DNA of 64,000 nucleotides. Source: Escherichia phage LHE287. This document shows positions 1,234-41,017 of the stretch, one piece after another (the first letter of the stretch is position 1; each line of letters starts with the position of its first letter). The position numbers and the translations under genes were made by a program. The DNA lies in sequence record PP761450.1; one strand, given 5' to 3'. The notes beneath the pieces are model-generated. The model did no database searches and had not been told where the DNA came from. It saw only the letters and a program-made list of their open reading frames with translations.

Positions 1234-1896
1234 TTACACCTCCACCGCGTGAGACTTCAGGAGTTCATCAATCTCTTTCTGTCCCATGTATGAGAACGGG
1301 GTGCGCTGGTAGAACGCCCAGAGTACTAACTGGACAACAGCACGGGAACGGGTTTCGGCCGTCATCACCAGGCCACTGAAATGAGGAGACTCAGCTGTCC
1401 ATTGTATCTCTTCGCCCAGGTCTTGATTACAGGTCACCGAGATGCGGAACTTGTTGCACAGATTGTCGACTTCTTTGTACGCATCGGTAGACACACGAAG
1501 TTGTTCCGCATGCGCCCACGGAGTTGTGACGATTCTTTCACCCATCACTTTATCAGAGATAAACCAATCAATACATTCGGTAAACTCACTAAAATGGTCG
1601 ATACGATAAATGCAGTCTCCCCCTTCCATAGAACGCATGGCATGATAGCGAGCGTCGATTTCGTTGTTGTGCATCGCGTTGAAGTCGATGAACACGCGAC
1701 GCGCCAGCACAACATCTTCTGGTTGAAGTGCCAAGAAATCGTTCAGGCGGCTATAATGGAGGATATTGGAACCGTCGTGGCCACGTGTGCAATATGCGTA
1801 ATAGCTACCGATACGGGCGTGGGCAATATAAGACAACGGGGCGAAGAATAATCCGTCAGGATCAGGACCGACGATAATAGAATAAAGTTTTTCCAT
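1234..1896 (-). CDS. hypothetical protein
   Basis: ORF 1234..1911 trimmed to first ATG (1896); the listed start is TTG. Confidence 0.5.
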   Translation of the reverse strand: MEKLYSIIVGPDPDGLFFAPLSYIAHARIGSYYAYCTRGHDGSNILHYSRLNDFLALQPEDVVLARRVFIDFNAMHNNEIDARYHAMRSMEGGDCIYRIDHFSEFTECIDWFISDKVMGERIVTTPWAHAEQLRVSTDAYKEVDNLCNKFRISVTCNQDLGEEIQWTAESPHFSGLVMTAETRSRAVVQLVLWAFYQRTPFSYMGQKEIDELLKSHAVEV

Positions 1897-1952
1897 GATA
1901 TAGTCACTCAAATGAAAGGGCAGCTTTATGATAAGCCGCCCGAGGTTATTGA

Positions 1953-2807
1953 TTATTGGAAATCGCCAACATACATGTTCAGCTTGTCGTCCCAGTTCAG
2001 AACGACACGGATCGTTCCGGTATCTTCTGGGAAGGTCAGTCTGTCACACATGGCGCGATTAACATAAGTCCCGCTCTGGTTGACGTTGTAGTCCTTGCCT
2101 TGCATGATACCAAAACGCTTGAAGTCGCGAGTGACCATCATGTTCAGAGTTGTCCAAGGGATTGCATCGCGCAGGGCTTTGCACAGGATGATCTTACCAT
2201 CCGACCTGAACGACACAAACAGCTCGTTGGCGATACGACGGCGAGTAGGCGGTTCAAGTTCACGCAGGGAAATGAATTGTGAATTCTTTACCTTTTCTGC
2301 CAGCGTCTGTACTTCTGCTGGATCCGGCTTGAACGACTCCACTGAAGAGTCAGACTTCATCACAACGTCACCCTTGCGCTTCTCAACCAATTGCTCCACA
2401 GCCTTTTGACTGTATTTGGACTTAGGAACAACCGCTGGCTTGATGACAGGGCTTGCATCTGGTTTCGCCTTTGGGGTACTCCGAGCCGCACGCAGCTTTT
2501 CCTGGGCTTCCAGAATGCGCTCTTGACGAGAAAGCGGAGCCTTTGGGGTGATCTTCGTACTGAAGTCAGAAACGCCGACCCAGTCACCCTGGTCATTACG
2601 CTTGGCGACCAGAGTCAGTTTGTGGATGATACCCTGAAGTTTGCTCTCACGTAAGTTGTCGGCATACCAGAACTTCGCGCCCATCTCGAACTTCTCGGCG
2701 AAGATCACGCGAGCGTCTTCGTGTACCAACATAACTTTGGCTGCGTTGGGGGCAAAAGCCTTATTCTTTTCGATAATCGCCGCAGCGATTGTTTTGGTCA
2801 GGAGCAT
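1953..2807 (-). CDS. hypothetical protein, Lys/Pro-rich central region
   Basis: ORF 1953..2891 trimmed to ATG at 2807 with GAAGGAA RBS. Confidence 0.45.
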   Translation of the reverse strand: MLLTKTIAAAIIEKNKAFAPNAAKVMLVHEDARVIFAEKFEMGAKFWYADNLRESKLQGIIHKLTLVAKRNDQGDWVGVSDFSTKITPKAPLSRQERILEAQEKLRAARSTPKAKPDASPVIKPAVVPKSKYSQKAVEQLVEKRKGDVVMKSDSSVESFKPDPAEVQTLAEKVKNSQFISLRELEPPTRRRIANELFVSFRSDGKIILCKALRDAIPWTTLNMMVTRDFKRFGIMQGKDYNVNQSGTYVNRAMCDRLTFPEDTGTIRVVLNWDDKLNMYVGDFQ

Positions 2808-2847
2808 CACAGTGTATTCCTTCAGTTCACAATGTAGGGCTAAAATT

Positions 2848-3174
2848 TTAACCCGAAACTTTATTTTGAAATCCGACAAAGTCCTGGGCAATCCCCCGGC
2901 AATACATCAGGTCTTTCTTCGTTTGTGGACTGTTATCAGCCGCAGTCAGCATCATGGGAAGATCCAGCGCATTCTCTATCTGATCAACACTGAACAGATC
3001 AAGGCGCTTCAGCTCTCCCTCGAAGTCAGACAGTAGGATAGATGTGTCTTTGTCATCTGGGTGGAACTGCTGATACGTCTCCATCCATGCCACACATGTG
3101 TTCAGTTTGGACGGTGGTGCGGCGTTTACACACCCGGCTATCAGTACCAACAAGAGCAGGATTTTACATTTCAT
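2848..3174 (-). CDS. putative lipoprotein
   Basis: N-terminus MKCKILLLLVLIAGC: signal peptide with lipobox-like LIAGC. Confidence 0.5.
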   Translation of the reverse strand: MKCKILLLLVLIAGCVNAAPPSKLNTCVAWMETYQQFHPDDKDTSILLSDFEGELKRLDLFSVDQIENALDLPMMLTAADNSPQTKKDLMYCRGIAQDFVGFQNKVSG

Positions 3175-3860
3175 CACTCGTTCTCCTTCATCATATTGTC
3201 ACAGTCAACACGAGTCTGCTGGAGTTCGCGCGACATGCGAGGATCATCAAGGTTCACGCTCAGATTCGTGGCCAGGTCTTTCAGACCGTTCTGAACCCTG
3301 TCTTCAAAGTAATAATCGTTCTCAACCAGCCAGGCTCTGAGACCAAGAGCGCGGGTGCGCCATTCCTTCTTCAGGATGCGATCAGAGGTCTGCGTGGCGC
3401 TGTATTCGAATACTTTGACGCACTGGTTGCCATCGTTGATGAGGTTCAGGTGACGGCGGCCTATCTGCACACCCTTCTGTAATGCCGGAGAAGGGAGCGA
3501 ACGGCACTGTCTTACGGTCATTCGGCCTTGGGTGCCCATACGCCCAGTCATGATCAAATCGCCAGCCTCCATGCCTCCACGGTTAAATTCGTCGTCATTG
3601 AGGTAGCCTTTGAGGTTATAGGCTCCCTGTTTGTAACGGTTGAACTCAATTCCGGCATTGACGACAGCGGTGGAGACGTTGCCTGTGTTCCAGAGTTCAG
3701 CGAAGTTCTCTATGGAACCAGACTTGTCGATGGCAACCGCCTGGGAGAACCCAGCACAATAGGAAAGGTCGGACCACAGTTTATCACCTGTGGAGTTCAG
3801 CTTGGCAGCGGCGGGTAATGCCAGACCAGCCAGCACAACCCCGAGGATTAAACGTTTCAT
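3174..3860 (-). CDS. secreted protein (signal peptide)
   Basis: Internal start MKRLILGVVLAGLALPAAA at 3860 with AAGGAG RBS; the longer listed ORF has no RBS. Confidence 0.55.
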   Translation of the reverse strand: MKRLILGVVLAGLALPAAAKLNSTGDKLWSDLSYCAGFSQAVAIDKSGSIENFAELWNTGNVSTAVVNAGIEFNRYKQGAYNLKGYLNDDEFNRGGMEAGDLIMTGRMGTQGRMTVRQCRSLPSPALQKGVQIGRRHLNLINDGNQCVKVFEYSATQTSDRILKKEWRTRALGLRAWLVENDYYFEDRVQNGLKDLATNLSVNLDDPRMSRELQQTRVDCDNMMKENE

Positions 3861-3939
3861 GGCGATTCTCCTTATTTCATTGGATGAAATGATAGGCGGC
3901 TCACCATGATGAGTAAAGGGATTCAATAAACTATCGTAT

Positions 3940-4389
3940 TCAGAAACGGGTATCGCTGACCGTTCTGTATCGCACACCCTGAAACTGTTTAGCGAGTTTA
4001 ACAAATTCCATCGCTGGCAAATCAACTTTGTAGACCTTCATGCGCTGTTTGCCGTCCATGTTCAACGCAGCGACAAATCGGTGAGAACCGTCAACAACGT
4101 AATTGTCAGAAGATACCCAAACTCGACCCATAGGTTTCTTATTTCTGATCTGCTTCATAATCTTCCAGACCTTCATTTTATTGATTTCGTTCTGGGTAAG
4201 ACGAAGCGTTTTGATGGGCACTTGCGCAGCATCTATGGACACGCCGTTGTCTTCAAGATATTTGTGAAAATCTTCTTGTTTGTCGGCATCGATTTGCGGC
4301 ATAGAAGAACGAGAAAGCCCGAGGTTCCCAACAGGAATCCTCAGGCCGTTAATGATGTTCAACCAGTCAATAAAAGATGTAAGGAACAT
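3940..4389 (-). CDS. hypothetical protein
   Basis: 149-aa ORF, ATG with GAGGTG RBS. Confidence 0.5.
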   Translation of the reverse strand: MFLTSFIDWLNIINGLRIPVGNLGLSRSSMPQIDADKQEDFHKYLEDNGVSIDAAQVPIKTLRLTQNEINKMKVWKIMKQIRNKKPMGRVWVSSDNYVVDGSHRFVAALNMDGKQRMKVYKVDLPAMEFVKLAKQFQGVRYRTVSDTRF

Positions 4390-4421
4390 GACACACCTCG
4401 GGATATAGGGTTATCCCTTAG

Positions 4422-4622
4422 TTAGCGCATCCATCGATCCTTTCTCTCTTTCTCCTTGCGTTCGCGACGTTTCTGGTCGGATCGGAATAACCAATAGAAG
4501 AAGTTCCCACCCAAGATGAAAACCACCGCGATTATTACTAGGACACCCTTCACAATTTCCCAAACCAATTCTTTATCCAAATTATACCTCTTCTTCTTCT
4601 TCTTCTTCAGGTCCACCGTCAA
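4422..4622 (-). CDS. possible small membrane protein (no ATG start; TTG or GTG or frameshift product)
   Basis: ORF-track frame contains a hydrophobic helix VLVIIAVVFILGG and a basic tail; begins inside the (GAA)6 run of the upstream gene. Confidence 0.25.
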   Translation of the reverse strand: MTVDLKKKKKKRYNLDKELVWEIVKGVLVIIAVVFILGGNFFYWLFRSDQKRRERKEKERKDRWMR

Positions 4623-4878
4623 TCAGGATACGAGCGGCGTCGAAAGTTTCCCCGCCCGTGTTCAGCAGCTTGGTCAGATCGTCAAGATATCGGACCGTGC
4701 CAAGATCAGATGACCGCGATATGAACTCCAGCATACCATACAACGCTGTTTGGAATCGGCTGTTATCGATATCGTTCTTTATTACCATCAGGCGCAAGAT
4801 GTTCTCTGACTGAGTATGGCCAACACACGCCTTGTCTCTGATCATCTCCTTGATAGAACTTCTCTCTGATGGTGTCAT
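4582..4878 (-). CDS. hypothetical protein with C-terminal poly-Glu tail
   Basis: 98 aa ending EEEEEEEV, encoded by a (GAA)6 run; ATG with G-rich RBS. Confidence 0.45.
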   Translation of the reverse strand: MTPSERSSIKEMIRDKACVGHTQSENILRLMVIKNDIDNSRFQTALYGMLEFISRSSDLGTVRYLDDLTKLLNTGGETFDAARILIDGGPEEEEEEEV

Positions 4879-5249
4879 AACGTACCCCCGACAGAGATCA
4901 AGAACTCTTCTTGCATGGTCTTGACCGGGTGGTGGTTGCGGGTTTCGAACATGAAGCCCCAGCCACCGTCGGCGACGTTGCCAAAGGTCTTGACGCCAAA
5001 GGACTTCGTCCCGTTGGAGCAGGAATAGATGTCCAGGACGTATGGGCTACCCTGATTGTCGATCCCACGATTCACGTCGTCTGATACGCAGCGCTCAATC
5101 ATCTTCCCGTTCTTATACAGAACGAGGTCTTGGCCATACGCCTTGAAAGCATAAACACCGTTGGTAGACACTCCGGTGATGACAGGAGGGGCGGAAACAG
5201 CAGCAAAGGAAGCGCCCAGCAGGGCAACAGCGAGGATTAACTTTTTCAT
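4875..5249 (-). CDS. secreted protein (signal peptide)
   Basis: Start MKKLILAVALLGASFAAVSA at 5249. Confidence 0.5.
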   Translation of the reverse strand: MKKLILAVALLGASFAAVSAPPVITGVSTNGVYAFKAYGQDLVLYKNGKMIERCVSDDVNRGIDNQGSPYVLDIYSCSNGTKSFGVKTFGNVADGGWGFMFETRNHHPVKTMQEEFLISVGGTL

Positions 5250-27534: not shown

Positions 27535-29007
27535 TTAGTTCAAGACATATTTGATCAGTCCACAATTCCAAATCCTGACCAGCCCGGCTTCGGTTGCTAA
27601 CTGGCTTTCTGTTTTGCCTTCTACGTCATACCCCATGCGAGCAAATGAACCTTTTCTGAAACCGAATTTGTGCTCACGCATAAATGTGCCAGGCTTGTGG
27701 TATTTGTAGTCTGGCTTCTGTACTTCCTCTTCTACGAATCCGTGGGATAGGTAAATGTTGGACAACCTGCTTACAACACACCTATCCCCAAAGGAATAGA
27801 TTTTGGTGTCGGTAAATTTTCTTCTGAAGTGTGAAAGAAGTTTACTGAATGCCCCGTGGCAATCATTAGAGGCAAATCTGACTAATTCCAGGCCATCTTT
27901 CCTTTTAGTGAATAGCATCACGGCTTGTATGACCCCACTCTTGTCAATTAACGACAAATGGTGGGTGGAAGAAACGGAACCTTGTATGTGGTGGTTGTCT
28001 AAAAACTCCCTCAAGCCGCTTATATTCCCCCAAACGACTTTGTGTTGGCGAGCATATGACGCGGGTGTTTTAATGCCAAGTTTAGCTTTCAGAAGAGATT
28101 TGACCACTTCCTGTTTCTCAACCCATTCATCTTCCCAGATGTGGATCAACTGGATACCCTGAGTTTCACATATTTCAGTCTTTTCCAGGTGATAATGTTT
28201 CTCTTTAAAAACTTCTGAATGCCAGTACAGGCCATTAAATTCGATCGCCAATTTGTGTTCAGGGCAATAGATATCCAGTTGTTTACCGGATAATATACTG
28301 TAATCAGAAACAGTGTTTACAACTCCCATTGAGGTGAGAAACTCGGATATTTCCTTTTCATAAGAAGATTTCTTGTTCCTGATAGAACCATTGCTGAACA
28401 ACGCACGTTTTAGTATGTTCGAGTTTTTCATAGGGTTGTCAACACCATAACGTTCTTGTAACGTTGCCAACGCCTTCTCCCTCACACCAGGTAATTGTAG
28501 TGTGGAGCAGCTTCCGTATTTGGATATATTCGAATTCTCTATGGCTTTCCGACCAATCCCACCTTTACACATAGAAACCTGATAACATTCTTCAGAACAA
28601 TATGTTCTGTAATCTTTATTATTGATATAAAAGTTGGTTTCCTTGGAACACACCGGGCATATTTTCACGGTTCTATTGTACAGCCAAGCTGTGACTTTAC
28701 AAGCCAAATCTTGTAGGGTGTTGTGGGTATTGGCGAACACTAAAAGGTCTACATTGATGTGCTTCATAAGCAGTTCAGATTTGCATTTTTGGATATCCAA
28801 TTTGTTGTTCTTGGTAAACATATATTTGTAGAAAAATTGGCGATATGATTCCTCGTCAGACAATTCATTCACTGCTTCAAGGAAACCTTCCGGGAGGTTC
28901 TTTAGGGTGTTCGATGCGAAGGTCTTGCAAGCATCTGAACAAAATTTCTTATCTTTCCTGGATGCTTTGAACTGTTCATGGCAGACACTACAGATTACCT
29001 GATACAT
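27535..29007 (-). CDS. free-standing nuclease: zinc-finger N-terminus plus Vsr-like (PD-(D/E)xK) domain; putative homing endonuclease
   Basis: PEHKLAIEFNGLYWHSE and GIQLIHIWEDEW parallel E. coli Vsr PKHRLAIFVDGCFWHGH and GWRVLIVWECAL; two CxxC...C clusters; GGAGGAG RBS at start 29007. Confidence 0.6.
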   Translation of the reverse strand: MYQVICSVCHEQFKASRKDKKFCSDACKTFASNTLKNLPEGFLEAVNELSDEESYRQFFYKYMFTKNNKLDIQKCKSELLMKHINVDLLVFANTHNTLQDLACKVTAWLYNRTVKICPVCSKETNFYINNKDYRTYCSEECYQVSMCKGGIGRKAIENSNISKYGSCSTLQLPGVREKALATLQERYGVDNPMKNSNILKRALFSNGSIRNKKSSYEKEISEFLTSMGVVNTVSDYSILSGKQLDIYCPEHKLAIEFNGLYWHSEVFKEKHYHLEKTEICETQGIQLIHIWEDEWVEKQEVVKSLLKAKLGIKTPASYARQHKVVWGNISGLREFLDNHHIQGSVSSTHHLSLIDKSGVIQAVMLFTKRKDGLELVRFASNDCHGAFSKLLSHFRRKFTDTKIYSFGDRCVVSRLSNIYLSHGFVEEEVQKPDYKYHKPGTFMREHKFGFRKGSFARMGYDVEGKTESQLATEAGLVRIWNCGLIKYVLN

Positions 29008-29064
29008 AATTATTCTCCTCCATATGGTATCTAGTATAACCTGTTCGATAATATGAACAAATAA

Positions 29065-29086
29065 AAACCCCGCCGAAGCGGGGTTT
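29065..29086 (-). terminator. UUCG-loop terminator after major capsid gene
   Basis: aaaccccgcc-gaag-gcggggttt; minus strand shows cUUCGg loop followed by TTTTAT. Confidence 0.6.
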
Positions 29087-29111
29087 GTCAGGGTTAAGGA
29101 CAACTATTCGA

Positions 29112-34920: not shown

Positions 34921-34946
34921 GGTCGTTCTCCTCTGAATAGTGTAAA

Positions 34947-34953
34947 TATTTAG
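34947..34953 (-). promoter_or_regulatory. late-promoter-like CTAAATA motif
   Basis: 27 nt upstream of the tail tube gene. Confidence 0.45.
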
Positions 34954-35311
34954 TTTTGAAATAAATGGGGGTTAAAATACCCCAAAGTGAGGATATTTAT
35001 TATGTCATTCCCCCGATAAAATTGTTCATGCTACCACAAACCGTTCACCCCAACCAGGAAGGCTGCGTTGTATTGTAGTGACGAATGTAAATCATTCATG
35101 CTGGGAACGATGAAACGCAACTCAGATTTATTGGTCAATCTTCCGGCGACCGAAACTGAATGCCGCTCTTGGGTTGATAGTAAACTCAGGAAGAAAGATG
35201 GTTCGTTGAACTTGGATACGATACAGAAGGAAAACAGAGGATATGCTGGCGATAGAAGCCGGGTTGGGTGTATCTGGGGTGTGGTCTTATCCGGTATGAA
35301 CTGGAAACTAA

Positions 35312-35330
35312 AACCCCGCCTCAGCGGGGT
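35312..35330 (-). terminator. hairpin terminator
   Basis: aaccccgcc-tca-gcggggt followed on the minus strand by TTTAGTTT. Confidence 0.5.
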
Positions 35331-35336
35331 AAACTA

Positions 35337-35693
35337 CTATTTGCGAATGCTAACCTGAGCATAATACACATGATAATCACCATGGGCACGGAAGCTGGTG
35401 AGGTGGAATGTGACGAGGTGGCTCCCGAAAGCTACAACTTTGGTATCTGGGGAGCATAAATCATTAGCCAGTTCACCCAGAACCTTACCACAAAACTCCT
35501 CAACGATAGCGTTAAATCTGTCAATGTGTGGACTGGTCACCGTCATTGGACCAACATCTGCACAGTAGATCCCTTTTATCATCTTTCCCTGGCTGTCGCG
35601 TACTGGCTTTGCAGGCTGGTAAGGATTGATGCGGCGTTTCAGGTTACAGAGGCCGATTTCTTTCAGGATAGCGTTAATTTCAGTCTTGGTCAT
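35337..35693 (-). CDS. hypothetical protein (accessory gene between sheath and tube genes)
   Basis: Start MTKTEIN (35693) with AAGGAA-CTATATC-ATG; sigma70-like promoter upstream. Confidence 0.45.
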   Translation of the reverse strand: MTKTEINAILKEIGLCNLKRRINPYQPAKPVRDSQGKMIKGIYCADVGPMTVTSPHIDRFNAIVEEFCGKVLGELANDLCSPDTKVVAFGSHLVTFHLTSFRAHGDYHVYYAQVSIRK

Positions 35694-35740
35694 GATATAG
35701 TTCCTTCGTTTCAAGTTGGTGTCGTACTGCTTATGTTTAG

Positions 35741-35768
35741 AATTATACGTGAGTTATTGAAGAAGTAA
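35741..35768 (-). promoter_or_regulatory. candidate sigma70/T4-early-type promoter (TTTACT-N16-TATAAT)
   Basis: Minus-strand -10 TATAAT (35741-35746) and -35 TTTACT (35763-35768). Confidence 0.4.
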
Positions 35769-35802
35769 AGTAATTCAATAAAATAATCTGGGAAAAATTT
35801 AA

Positions 35803-35821
35803 AACCCCGCCGAAGCGGGGT
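35803..35821 (-). terminator. UUCG-loop terminator
   Basis: accccgcc-gaag-gcggggt; U-run on the minus strand. Confidence 0.55.
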
Positions 35822-35825
35822 CTTG

Positions 35826-36128
35826 TTACACTTTGCTGTATTTCTTAAACAATTTACCGAGTTCACCTGGGGCTTCTCGAGTTCCAGCAGCTTTGCTAAC
35901 AACCTGTTTATCTTTCTTCAGGTCGAATACTTTGATCTCTTTGCCATTATATGTATATTCAAAATCATCAATGGTTATGCGGAAGAAATCTCCAAATACT
36001 CCATTTTCGATATCACCCTTTTTGAGCCTTACATCTTGGTCTTCCAACCATTCAATCACGGAGTCTTTAACTTTCTGAAGGTCACCTTTTAGGCCTGCTT
36101 CTGCTAAAAATTGAGAAAAACTTTTCAT
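35826..36128 (-). CDS. hypothetical protein
   Basis: 100-aa ORF with GAGGT RBS. Confidence 0.45.
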   Translation of the reverse strand: MKSFSQFLAEAGLKGDLQKVKDSVIEWLEDQDVRLKKGDIENGVFGDFFRITIDDFEYTYNGKEIKVFDLKKDKQVVSKAAGTREAPGELGKLFKKYSKV

Positions 36129-36144
36129 AACAATACCTCAATGT

Positions 36145-36160
36145 GCCCTCCGAAGAGGGC
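36145..36160 (-). terminator. UUCG-loop hairpin after sheath gene
   Basis: gccctc-cgaag-agggc. Confidence 0.4.
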
Positions 36161-36170
36161 ATGGAGTAAA

Positions 36171-38118: not shown

Positions 38119-40347
38119 TCACCGTCTCAGCCATTCTTCCATAGACACACCAGAGCGTTCATCATAAACCTGAATTCCACCGAACCCTGGGATGTTCTCC
38201 ACAGAGTGAGGATCTGGTGTCGACATCATACCCCCAAATGGTAGCATCTGAGATTCTTCCATCGCAGACAACCGTCCTCTCATGTCCACAGAGATATTTG
38301 AATTGGTGAGATCACTAAACCATTCTTGTTTCACCGCCCATGCATACAACACGAGGGGCATTACACAGTCATCATGACAACCATCATCGGCTTCATACCT
38401 TGTTCCAGTCCATACGAATGTACTGAGTTCATCTATCGTGTCCTGGTCATCTATCACCAGCATTTCACGTTCAATCAGGGCTTTCAGGTTGGCACAGCCG
38501 TTTGTGCGCACCTTCTTGTTGGTATTGATACCAGGCTCAGGGCGGCGACCACCGATTCTCTTGCCTGTACCCTTGGTATCTGTTGTAGTGAAGATGATCT
38601 CGGGATATTCAATTTCCTGGTATAGAATTGTGATTACCTGACCACCCACGTCGTTGTTGGTCTCGACTAGCATCGGGCACGTTCCATACTTCTCACCCAT
38701 ATCGGCGATTGTGTACGCGTACATCATTGGAGGTATCGTGTTATTTCGATACTTGGCTGCGATCTTGTGAGGATAGTCTGTGATGTCGATAATGGTCAGC
38801 ACAGAATAATCCCCTTCGACACCCTTGCCTGTATCTGCGATACCCATATAGATGCGCTTAGGATCGTAGTCGTGATAAATCTTGGTGAACTCGTTCGGCT
38901 CCTGATACAGCTTCGAGGTCATCTTGTCCAGACACTTGGCAGGTATCAGTGATCCCACAGAACCACGGAACTTAATGCCAAATTCTTGATCGAAACGTGC
39001 ATCACCCAGCTTCGCCCTTTGTTTGGATTCCCAGTCTGGATCTTTGGTGTACGTTGGAACACGATACCATGGGACCTCTGTGAGTTTGAAGTCGTTGTAT
39101 TGTGGATGTTCTGGGTTCGCCTTGGTGACGATGTCGTAGAACAACCCGCGCTGACCTTTCGGCGTACTGGTCAGAATACAACGTGAAGTCTCTGCAGATG
39201 CAATCGCCGGGAATGTAGACTCCCAGAATTCAAAGTCGTTTTCAATGAACGCCACTTCGTCCACATACAGGAGCGATACAGATCGACCACGGATGGAGTC
39301 GGAAGATGTCGCATAGGCGTAGATCTTTGATCCGTTTTCGAACTCTATCAGCGTGGAACCGAACTTCTCACAACCCTGTTGGAGGAAGAATGGCAAATCT
39401 TGATATGCTTTGCGAATACGATCTAGGATTTCAATCGCCTGCTTCTCTTTGTTCGCCAGTACTGCGATCTCTTTGTCGGAGTGGAACATCGCATACCAGA
39501 GCAGGAACGCTGCCACGACAGTCGTGTTGTGGCTGAGGAAGCCGTTGGTGTAGTAGCGCTGATCACTAGATTTCACCTGTAGGTCATACATGTGATGCGT
39601 CTCACCAGTCTGCCAAACCTCACGGATTTCTTCTGGACCTTCTGACGTCATGATGTATGACCCAGCATTCAGGTCTTTGGCAAATATCTCCTTCATTTCC
39701 GGAGTGAAGAATATATGTTCGTCGGCCACGTTAATTCGCCGCCCAGTAACAGTCACAATAACGAATTCCGCATATTTCTTCGTCTTATGCGCTGCGATAA
39801 CCGGAACCCAGCCACTATCGGATTGCACAAAGTAACGCTTGCCGAAGCGGCTGTCCACGAACTTGTCATGGTTGCCAATGGTATTCAGCGGCACAGCGTG
39901 GTTGACGTCCTCGAAGCGGCTGTGAAGCTCCCCTATGGTCAGGAGCAACTGCTCTTGGCTGAGAGTATCGTAAACTGTGACAAGCGTGTCACCTTTTACA
40001 CATTTCCCAGACTGACGAGCCTGGACGACCGCATTGAATCGATAGTCCTGGAAGTCATGGAACAACTGCTTCTGGTAATCGTGCATGTCAAAGAGGATGA
40101 AGCCTTTATCGATGGTCGTGATCTTGTAGTAGTTGGCGGCGAAGTAATGGGCGTCCATCGCACACTCGACGAACTCCGATTCTTGTTCGTCGGTTAGCAT
40201 CAACTCCACACGAGGTGCACGCACAGACGGCTTGCGCATGAACGTTTGGTCCATACGCAGTCTGACGTCTTCTGTCTTAAACCCCGTCTTGAGCGGGGCG
40301 TATTCTACATCACGCTTCTGATACGCCATTGTCTTCACCTTCTCCAT
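38119..40347 (-). CDS. gp17: terminase large subunit (gp17-like) interrupted by an in-frame mini-intein
   Basis: Exteins match T4 gp17 around the P-loop (ARQSGK / TTVVAAFLLWYAMF...AIEILDRIRKAYQDLPFFLQQG); 159-aa insertion begins CVKGDTLV and ends NGFLSHN followed by Thr. Confidence 0.85.
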   Translation of the reverse strand: MEKVKTMAYQKRDVEYAPLKTGFKTEDVRLRMDQTFMRKPSVRAPRVELMLTDEQESEFVECAMDAHYFAANYYKITTIDKGFILFDMHDYQKQLFHDFQDYRFNAVVQARQSGKCVKGDTLVTVYDTLSQEQLLLTIGELHSRFEDVNHAVPLNTIGNHDKFVDSRFGKRYFVQSDSGWVPVIAAHKTKKYAEFVIVTVTGRRINVADEHIFFTPEMKEIFAKDLNAGSYIMTSEGPEEIREVWQTGETHHMYDLQVKSSDQRYYTNGFLSHNTTVVAAFLLWYAMFHSDKEIAVLANKEKQAIEILDRIRKAYQDLPFFLQQGCEKFGSTLIEFENGSKIYAYATSSDSIRGRSVSLLYVDEVAFIENDFEFWESTFPAIASAETSRCILTSTPKGQRGLFYDIVTKANPEHPQYNDFKLTEVPWYRVPTYTKDPDWESKQRAKLGDARFDQEFGIKFRGSVGSLIPAKCLDKMTSKLYQEPNEFTKIYHDYDPKRIYMGIADTGKGVEGDYSVLTIIDITDYPHKIAAKYRNNTIPPMMYAYTIADMGEKYGTCPMLVETNNDVGGQVITILYQEIEYPEIIFTTTDTKGTGKRIGGRRPEPGINTNKKVRTNGCANLKALIEREMLVIDDQDTIDELSTFVWTGTRYEADDGCHDDCVMPLVLYAWAVKQEWFSDLTNSNISVDMRGRLSAMEESQMLPFGGMMSTPDPHSVENIPGFGGIQVYDERSGVSMEEWLRR
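39526..40002 (-). other. mini-intein coding segment within the terminase large subunit gene
   Basis: N-terminal Cys codon at 40000-40002, C-terminal His-Asn at 39526-39531, +1 Thr; YDLQV...NGFLSHN block; no endonuclease domain (159 aa). Confidence 0.75.
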
Positions 40348-41017
40348 TCGGCTCTGCCTGAACGTCGATTACATCTTCTTCGGGATCAGGTCCTTTGGAC
40401 GCAGCTTTCGCTGCAGCACGTTCTTCAGCACGTTTACGGGCGTCTTCGATGGTCTTCAGTAGATCACGGGAAGACCTGGCCTGTTTACCGACGTTGACCG
40501 TGGTTGTGCCATCAGGGGACGTGGTGACCTCGACGGTTGTTTCGTCTCCAGGAGGTGGCTCTCTGTCGCCCGTGACCGCCTTGATAGTTTTCTGGTTCTC
40601 CATCAGGTCTTTGTTCAGACCGCGCATGAGTTCACCCAACTCTTTGAAGACTGTGAAAGCACGGGGTGCTTCAGTCGTCGTCGCAAGTTTGGCTGCCTGT
40701 CCCATCATGAACATCGTGGCTTCCTGCATGGCATAAGTCGTGTCACGGATGCGTTTGTAGTCGGTGGTGGCATCAGTATCTTCGAAGTCTGGAACCTTAG
40801 ACTCCTTGGGCTTCAGCTCTTCTGGGTCCAATGAAGGAGGAAACACCACAGGCTCATACCCCGCAGGCTTTTCACCCAACCATTCGCCTGTATCCGGATC
40901 GTAATCTTTTCCGGCCATAGGCGAGGTCTTCTCCATGACTTCTTGAGCGACCTCATCCCGCGCTTGGATAGCACTGAGGGTGGATAATAGGCGTTCTGAC
41001 ATAGCACTCATAATCAA
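40310..41017 (-). CDS. terminase small subunit-position protein (gp16-position)
   Basis: 235-aa ORF immediately upstream of and overlapping the terminase large subunit gene. Confidence 0.4.
   Translation of the reverse strand: MIMSAMSERLLSTLSAIQARDEVAQEVMEKTSPMAGKDYDPDTGEWLGEKPAGYEPVVFPPSLDPEELKPKESKVPDFEDTDATTDYKRIRDTTYAMQEATMFMMGQAAKLATTTEAPRAFTVFKELGELMRGLNKDLMENQKTIKAVTGDREPPPGDETTVEVTTSPDGTTTVNVGKQARSSRDLLKTIEDARKRAEERAAAKAASKGPDPEEDVIDVQAEPNGEGEDNGVSEA

Follow-up and report, generated by a model that had tools for sequence, protein, structure and literature searches.

A predicted class-1 mini-intein in the Walker A motif of an Ackermannviridae large terminase

The large terminase (TerL) gene of Escherichia phage LHE287 (record PP761450.1) carries a 159-residue insert that is almost certainly a canonical class-1 mini-intein, positioned in the Walker A P-loop of a T4 gp17-type enzyme and predicted to splice. 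The window analysed here, a stretch of 64,000 nucleotides, shares about 99% identity with Escherichia phages vB_EcoM-ZQ1, RPN242 and A221 and 91% with Shigella phage Ag3 (Ackermannviridae, Aglimvirinae, Agtrevirus); the phage is described here as an Agtrevirus-like Escherichia coli phage of the Ackermannviridae. The insert (CVKGDTLV...YYTNGFLSHN) spans residues 116-274 of a 742-residue open reading frame (ORF) counted from its first ATG, with ...VVQARQSGK before it and TTVVAAFLLWYAMF after it. Its limits, 39526-40002, with 159 residues between ARQSGK and TTVVAAF, are exactly those proposed in an earlier reading of the bare sequence (the original prediction).

38119..40347, minus strand: TerL precursor ORF, 99.7% identical to TerL of Escherichia phage vB_EcoM-RPN242, with Terminase_6N and Terminase_6C matches
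40003..40347, minus strand: N-extein, ending with the first six Walker A residues, ARQSGK (40003..40020), which align to SRQLGK of T4 gp17
39526..40002, minus strand: predicted class-1 mini-intein of 159 residues (HINT splicing domain only), identified by sequence models, PDB sequence and fold matches, invariant catalytic columns and the annotation of its counterpart in Salmonella phage Mooltan
40000..40002, minus strand: block A nucleophile Cys1 (TGT), invariant in 21/21 aligned inteins
39715..39726, minus strand: block B, A93-D94-E95-H96, of which A93, D94 and H96 are invariant across the aligned inteins
39526..39591, minus strand: blocks F and G, MYDLQVKSSDQRYYTNGFLSHN, with block F Asp140, penultimate His158 and terminal Asn159
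38119..39525, minus strand: C-extein, opening with the +1 Thr, which is the Walker A Thr (39523..39525), and holding the remainder of the ATPase domain along with the RNaseH-like nuclease domain
40310..41017, minus strand: small terminase subunit (TerS, gp16-like), overlapping the TerL start and named from the annotation of relatives

Anatomy and fold of the insert

By sequence, the host protein is a T4 gp17-type large terminase (Pfam Terminase_6), in agreement with the original prediction. The Pfam matches flanking the insert, Terminase_6N (residues 275-467, 63.5 bits) and the RNaseH-like nuclease Terminase_6C (residues 504-661, 29 bits), both score above their cut-offs. Spliced in silico, TerL matches the T4 gp17 structures 3ezk and 3cpe (E 3.5e-72), and its Walker A region, arqsgkttvvaafl, aligns column-for-column with srqlgkttvvaifl of gp17, the C-extein pairing with TTVVAIFL. 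With no gap in this alignment, the point of insertion falls between Lys and Thr of Walker A, whose threonine doubles as the +1 nucleophile. Upstream of TerL is a gp16-like gene, and downstream is the tail sheath gene.

The ORF ends in a stop codon at 38119..38121, and translation probably begins at its second ATG (40329, M7) and not at the first, because the second has the better ribosome-binding site, a Shine-Dalgarno-like AAGGTGA six nucleotides upstream, and the close relatives are all annotated or predicted at 736 aa. A start at M7 therefore gives a precursor of 736 aa, a spliced product of 577 aa and an intein at residues 110-268. The original prediction of a 742-aa ORF and, on removal of the insert, a 583-aa product holds when counted from the first ATG and gives way to the shorter values at the probable start; the DNA coordinates of the intein are the same for both.

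The insert alone matches Pfam Intein_splicing with an E-value of 1.6e-8 and 35.0 bits (curated cut-off 35.8), far above chance, the match lying between residues 133 and 234 of the 742-aa ORF. In NCBIfam, it reaches 25.1 bits against TIGR01445 intein_Nterm (cut-off 24.5), and intein residues 139-159 give a weak match, below its cut-off, to the C-terminal splice-region model TIGR01443. Its sequence matches in PDB are all inteins (Cat consensus intein, CDC21-1, VidaL, gp41-1 and Mxe GyrA), with which blocks F and G align as YDL...YYTNG(I/F)(V/L)SH.

An alignment of 21 inteins from homologous terminases, 30-78% identical to that of the window, was used as input to AlphaFold2. The resulting model has a mean predicted local distance difference test score (pLDDT) of 95.3 and a predicted template modelling score (pTM) of 0.88, and consists of a single HINT domain throughout, nearly all β-strand with two short helices. 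A Foldseek search against PDB, taken over the 50 best matches, returned only HINT-fold splicing domains, comprising 46 intein chains and, from rank 30 down, four chains of the bacterial intein-like (BIL) domain BIL2, with query-normalised template modelling (TM) scores of 0.58-0.81. VidaL (6vgv) ranks first, with an E-value of 5e-11, and Npu DnaB, Ssp DnaB, gp41-1, TFIIB mini-inteins, RadA, Mxe GyrA and Mtu RecA are also among the high matches. Similarity to Hint and intein domains, the lack of which would have counted against the original prediction, is thus present both in sequence and in fold.

The residues read directly from the sequence are those of an intein, as had been proposed: Cys is first, Asn is last and preceded by His, and Thr follows; all are invariant in the homologous inteins apart from a Ser in place of the Thr in some. 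Blocks F and G read MYDLQV...TNGFLSHN, then Thr. In the TxxH motif of block B, Ala replaces the usual Thr (ADEH), while His96 is retained, both residues being invariant among the 21 aligned inteins. The block B His is the catalytically important residue of this motif. Cys1 is the sole cysteine of the intein.

Homing endonucleases normally sit between blocks B and F, which are here separated by about 40 residues (H96 to M138). Searches of Pfam and NCBIfam detected no LAGLIDADG, HNH, GIY-YIG or other endonuclease family in the insert, and, because of this, the short spacing and a length within the approximately 130-200 aa of mini-inteins, the insert is classed from its sequence as a mini-intein, as in the original prediction. 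No homing endonuclease was found inside or beside the intein in the window, where TerS and TerL overlap. The guanine-cytosine fraction of the insert (0.499) is close to that of the exteins (0.490), giving no compositional sign of recent foreign origin. A hidden Markov model built from the 21-intein alignment identified no further intein in the whole window, the TerL copy scoring 226 bits and the next-best match having an E-value of 0.61. The window contains no tRNA genes.

Intein-free relatives provide the empty site. With full-length TerL as the query, 674 relatives were found, and those with the closest exteins form two groups. Proteins of about 736-738 aa carry CV(K/R/D/H/A/E).D directly after ARQSGK, and proteins of 575-581 aa (P0015-P0019 in our set) carry an uninterrupted ARQSGKTTVVAAFLLWYA(M/L)F. 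The latter are 74-85% identical to the exteins of the window; intein-free relatives read ARQSGKTTVVAAF unbroken, and dozens more share the contiguous GKTT of P0015-P0019. The spliced TerL aligns with P0015 over 574 residues with 0 gaps and 85% identity, and in homologues lacking the insert the insertion-like gap expected by the original prediction falls exactly at GK/TT (the slash marking the insertion point). P0016 is encoded on a 118-kb uncultured Ackermannviridae-like contig with the same gene order as the window: gp13, gp14, gp15, TerS, TerL, sheath, tube and portal.

Conservation, predicted splicing and competing explanations

The columns invariant in the 21 aligned inteins are C1, K47, G64, T74, A93, D94, H96, T119, G122, M138, D140, T152, L156, S157, H158 and N159, those from M138 onwards belonging to blocks F and G. 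This set covers every residue that canonical class-1 splicing needs except the block B Thr, whose place is taken by the invariant Ala (ADxH). All 31 boundary-mapped inteins at the GK/T site, the window's counted, begin with Cys and end with LSHN, followed by Thr or Ser.

Substitution patterns indicate that the intein is under purifying selection. Several pairs are synonymously saturated and yield no computable nonsynonymous-to-synonymous rate ratio (dN/dS), so nonsynonymous and synonymous differences (pN and pS) are given. The pN/pS ratio of the intein is about 0.2-0.3, and dN/dS is 0.09-0.21 where dS is unsaturated; the window and Ag3 inteins differ with a pN of 0.148 and a pS of 0.485, and the Ag3 and PhiSH19 inteins give a dN/dS of 0.09. 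Inteins with 60% or more identity to that of the window occur in more than 270 cultured lytic phages, about equal to the number with a TerL at least 60% identical, so TerL must be matured in these phages. In a comparison of the intein-free P0015 with cultured phages, the best matches listed are all Ackermannviridae and are all split into two pieces. By these counts, the intein is essentially fixed in cultured Ackermannviridae.

In the proposed mechanism, TerL would be made as one precursor whose P-loop is split at GK/T by 159 residues. By analogy with established class-1 intein chemistry, splicing would start with an N-S acyl shift at Cys1, assisted by block B His96, forming a thioester at Lys-Cys1. 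Trans-esterification would then transfer the N-extein onto the side-chain hydroxyl of Thr+1, the Walker A threonine, and cyclisation of Asn159 to a succinimide, helped by His158 and block F Asp140, would free the intein. A final O-N shift would yield the native Lys-Thr bond and rebuild ARQSGKTT. The unspliced ATPase would be unable to bind or hydrolyse ATP. By analogy with the mapping of inteins on the TerL pentamer (PMC5050341), packaging would depend on splicing, and the pentameric motor probably could not assemble before it. The intein could be kept despite having no endonuclease in that any imprecise loss would abolish an active site the phage cannot do without. On this reading, it is inherited vertically throughout the cultured Ackermannviridae and reshuffled by homologous recombination between co-infecting phages, the copy in the window being one such recombinant.

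Whether the intein is a regulator and not a neutral passenger, with redox state, temperature, DNA or the capsid acting as signals that hold back or set off splicing and so time the onset of packaging, bears on the original prediction, which had put it forward as a regulation target. Retention at an active-site position in essentially all cultured Ackermannviridae and the purifying selection on the intein would fit such a switch, and a possible sensor role of ATPase inteins has been discussed by Kelley et al. (PMC5050341). However, the lethality of imprecise loss explains retention and purifying selection equally well, and intein-free relatives with a syntenic packaging module exist. Alleles that are only about 73% identical in DNA occupy identical exteins, which argues against fine co-adaptation of intein and host. 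With Cys1 as the sole cysteine, no intra-intein disulfide, the best-known redox trap, can form. Nothing in the sequence points to conditional splicing, and we regard a switch as improbable.

Several observations weigh against splicing as such. The Intein_splicing score falls 0.8 bit short of the curated cut-off and TIGR01443 also stays below its own, the block B Ala could slow the first step although it is invariant among these inteins, and Thr acts less strongly as a +1 nucleophile than do Cys and Ser. In the searchable literature, no splicing experiment on this intein or on any Ackermannviridae TerL intein was found, mentions being confined to notes in genome announcements. The marginal Pfam score, the missing block B Thr and the lack of a published experiment would also suit a degenerate, non-splicing HINT-derived insertion, with a mature terminase that works with a 159-residue loop in its P-loop. 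We consider this very unlikely, since C1, H96, D140, H158, N159 and the +1 Thr/Ser are invariant at only about 30% identity, which would be unexpected had catalysis been lost. Moreover, the insert parts the Walker A Lys from the Thr, residues that are contiguous in T4 gp17, and intein-free relatives have exactly GKTT.

Pretoxin HINT and BIL domains typically occur in variable toxin or surface proteins and do not ligate exteins. A domain of this kind, limited to cleavage, is hinted at by a weak PT-HINT match (E 0.013, 16.2 bits), by the label "pretoxin HINT domain protein" on Dickeya phage TerLs and by the BIL2 structures among the fold matches. It can be set aside with equal firmness, because the PT-HINT score is far under the 27.7-bit cut-off and under the intein models, genuine inteins rank above BIL domains in the fold search, the +1 nucleophile and terminal Asn are present and invariant, and the host is an essential conserved enzyme whose intact C-terminal nuclease domain would be lost by cleavage alone. 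The Dickeya phage label (KM209228, KM209320 and KJ716335, for phages phiD3, phiDP23.1 and RC-2014) is an annotation error caused by the intein. A class-1 mini-intein that is predicted to splice is the reading we retain.

Probable recombinant history of the intein

The intein and its exteins differ in their closest relatives. Compared with Escherichia phage PhaxI (Kuttervirus), the intein is 96% identical in protein and the exteins only 86.5%; two TerLs with exteins 93% identical to those of the window have inteins that are 70-78% identical. A sliding DNA comparison delimits the tract concerned.

39620..40045, minus strand: probable recombination or gene-conversion tract of ~425 bp, resembling Kuttervirus PhiSH19 and covering the last ~43 nt of the N-extein and intein residues 1 to ~128

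From about 40045 to 39620, identity is 91-98% to PhiSH19 versus 66-81% to Ag3 and SKML-39 (Agtrevirus). On either side of the tract, most 90-nt windows are about 50-85% identical to PhiSH19 and about 85-100% identical to Ag3/SKML-39, which takes in the final ~95 nt of the intein as well as the adjacent genes. At sites informative between PhiSH19 and Ag3, 102/111 within the tract are PhiSH19-type and nine are Ag3-type, against 108/952 PhiSH19-type and 844 Ag3-type outside it (Fisher p = 4e-71). Because the tract begins about 43 nt upstream of the intein and stops near intein residue 128, the intein of the window is very likely a natural chimera, PhiSH19-type from residue 1 to ~128 and Agtrevirus-type from ~129 to 159.

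Exchange of alleles is also apparent within Kuttervirus. The exteins of PhiSH19 and SFP10 are identical proteins (pN 0.000, pS 0.139), whereas their inteins have a pS of 0.759, which is saturated, a pN of 0.146 and about 73% DNA identity (TerL at 2674..4884 of each locus). This contrast therefore indicates allele replacement and not faster evolution of the intein. The Ackermannviridae have at least three deep intein alleles in circulation, and one allele is shared between genera almost unchanged. Since the intein of the window is itself recombinant, intein alleles appear to pass from one genus to another while lacking their own endonuclease.

The simplest cause of the mosaic is homologous recombination during co-infection through the conserved extein flanks. 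A stronger proposal, that exchange is driven and not just tolerated, the mini-intein being an actively exchanged cassette within the Ackermannviridae, seems doubtful to us; a free-standing endonuclease acting in trans (collaborative homing) or selection during co-infection could be drivers, as a matter of speculation. Salmonella phage SKML-39 has a free-standing homing-endonuclease gene between TerS and TerL (1809..2687 of its locus, L004), about 330 bp upstream of the intein, and such a free-standing endonuclease is also found at this position in Limestonevirus phages. A homing endonuclease or NUMOD3-motif protein is listed beside TerL in several Dickeya phages. Unlike SKML-39, the window has no homing-endonuclease gene between TerS and TerL, and its recombinant tract stops short of the TerS/TerL junction.

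The cross-genus recombinant history of an endonuclease-free intein appears to be new and would be a modest addition to intein population biology. The mosaic pattern implies that intein alleles recombine between genera and give rise to natural chimeric inteins that must still splice.

Known terminase inteins and neighbouring features

The intein itself is already known, contrary to the novelty implied by the original prediction. Genome announcements described it for Salmonella phages Marshall and Maynard in 2013 and for Mooltan and Klebsiella phage Magnus in 2019 (PMC3853055, PMC3868846, PMC6486243, PMC6763660). In GenBank, the mat_peptide "intein" of Mooltan has exactly the limits of the 159-aa match to the intein of the window, and NCBI has a stand-alone protein entry named "intein" for Maynard and Marshall, which shows 76% identity across 100% of the query. 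Marshall, Maynard and Mooltan (Kuttervirus) and Magnus (Taipeivirus-like) share with the window the host gene, the GK/T site, the length of 159 aa and the C1...SHN/T ends. The phage of the window differs in belonging to the Agtrevirus-like AV101/RPN242 clade, and its intein shares 76% identity with the Mooltan/SFP10 allele but 96% with the PhiSH19/PhaxI allele.

An intein at the same position is known from another terminase family. In mycobacteriophages, the TerL1-a intein interrupts Walker A between its invariant Lys and its nucleophilic Thr, described as a "classic" P-loop site (Kelley et al. 2016, PMC5050341), the same site of the large-terminase ATPase as in the window. Its host belongs to the Terminase_1 family of actinobacteriophages, in contrast to Terminase_6 here. 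Several mycobacteriophage TerL inteins spliced efficiently in a reporter, and it was argued that without splicing the active site could not form nor the pentamer assemble (PMC5050341). The Terminase_6 inteins of that survey lie in the C-motif (site f) and not in the P-loop, and several of the surveyed inteins have active endonucleases (PMC5050341).

Homologous inteins, 30-43% identical to the window's, with the same GK/T site and a TNG(I/F)LSHN/T end, occur in Campylobacter phages CP20, CP21 and IBB_35, Vibrio phage VAP7, Delftia phage PhiW-14, Agrobacterium phage Atu_ph07 and many metagenomic TerLs; that of IBB_35 was described in 2012 (PMC3322345). The other inteins of T4-like TerLs measure 150 to 181 aa, apart from one of 422 aa (P0074) that may hold an endonuclease; it sits at the GK/T site and its insert has no Pfam match and no recognisable endonuclease family. 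Some of the T4-like host genes differ from that of the window in having extra inserts (an intron, a homing-endonuclease gene or a second intein), and P0050, P0092 and P0120 appear to carry further inserts beside the P-loop intein. Some related TerLs (noted for P0073, P0098 and P0092) have a GIY-YIG domain at the expected beginning of the nuclease domain, which suggests terminase genes split or fused by homing-endonuclease insertion; in P0073, the 738-aa TerL of Vibrio phage VP-1, the GIY-YIG domain occupies residues 506-589.

Structurally, the mini-inteins VidaL (6vgv), Npu DnaB (4o1r), gp41-1 (6qaz), Mvu TFIIB (5o9i) and Pho RadA (4e2t) share the HINT horseshoe fold with the window's intein, at query-normalised TM-scores of 0.67-0.81, together with the block F/G pattern. 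They are 15-23% identical to it and come from unrelated hosts, and residues 23-43 of the window's intein form an additional helical segment.

As a discovery, the intein carries little weight, TerL inteins of Ackermannviridae (ViI-like) phages having been annotated since 2013 and the Lys/Thr point of the P-loop being a textbook intein position. Its identification is of value for annotation, as most GenBank records of these TerLs say only "terminase large subunit" or "hypothetical protein". It would also make a reasonable experimental system, being short, endonuclease-free and followed by Thr+1 in an essential motor protein of phages used for biocontrol, with natural intein-free relatives and several divergent alleles on hand for swap experiments.

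Two further regions of the window were noted. A variable island lies at 34921..36170, between the tail tube and tail sheath genes, and contains two small ORFs, 35826..36128 (100 aa) and 35337..35714 (125 aa), neither with a Pfam match; in RPN242, a 99%-identical relative, a GIY-YIG endonuclease gene occupies this place. A 522-aa ORF (27535..29103, minus strand), immediately downstream of the gene for the major capsid protein, gives weak restriction-endonuclease-like matches to Vsr, DUF559 and MTES_1575, all under their cut-offs, and its counterpart in RPN242 is annotated as a homing endonuclease.

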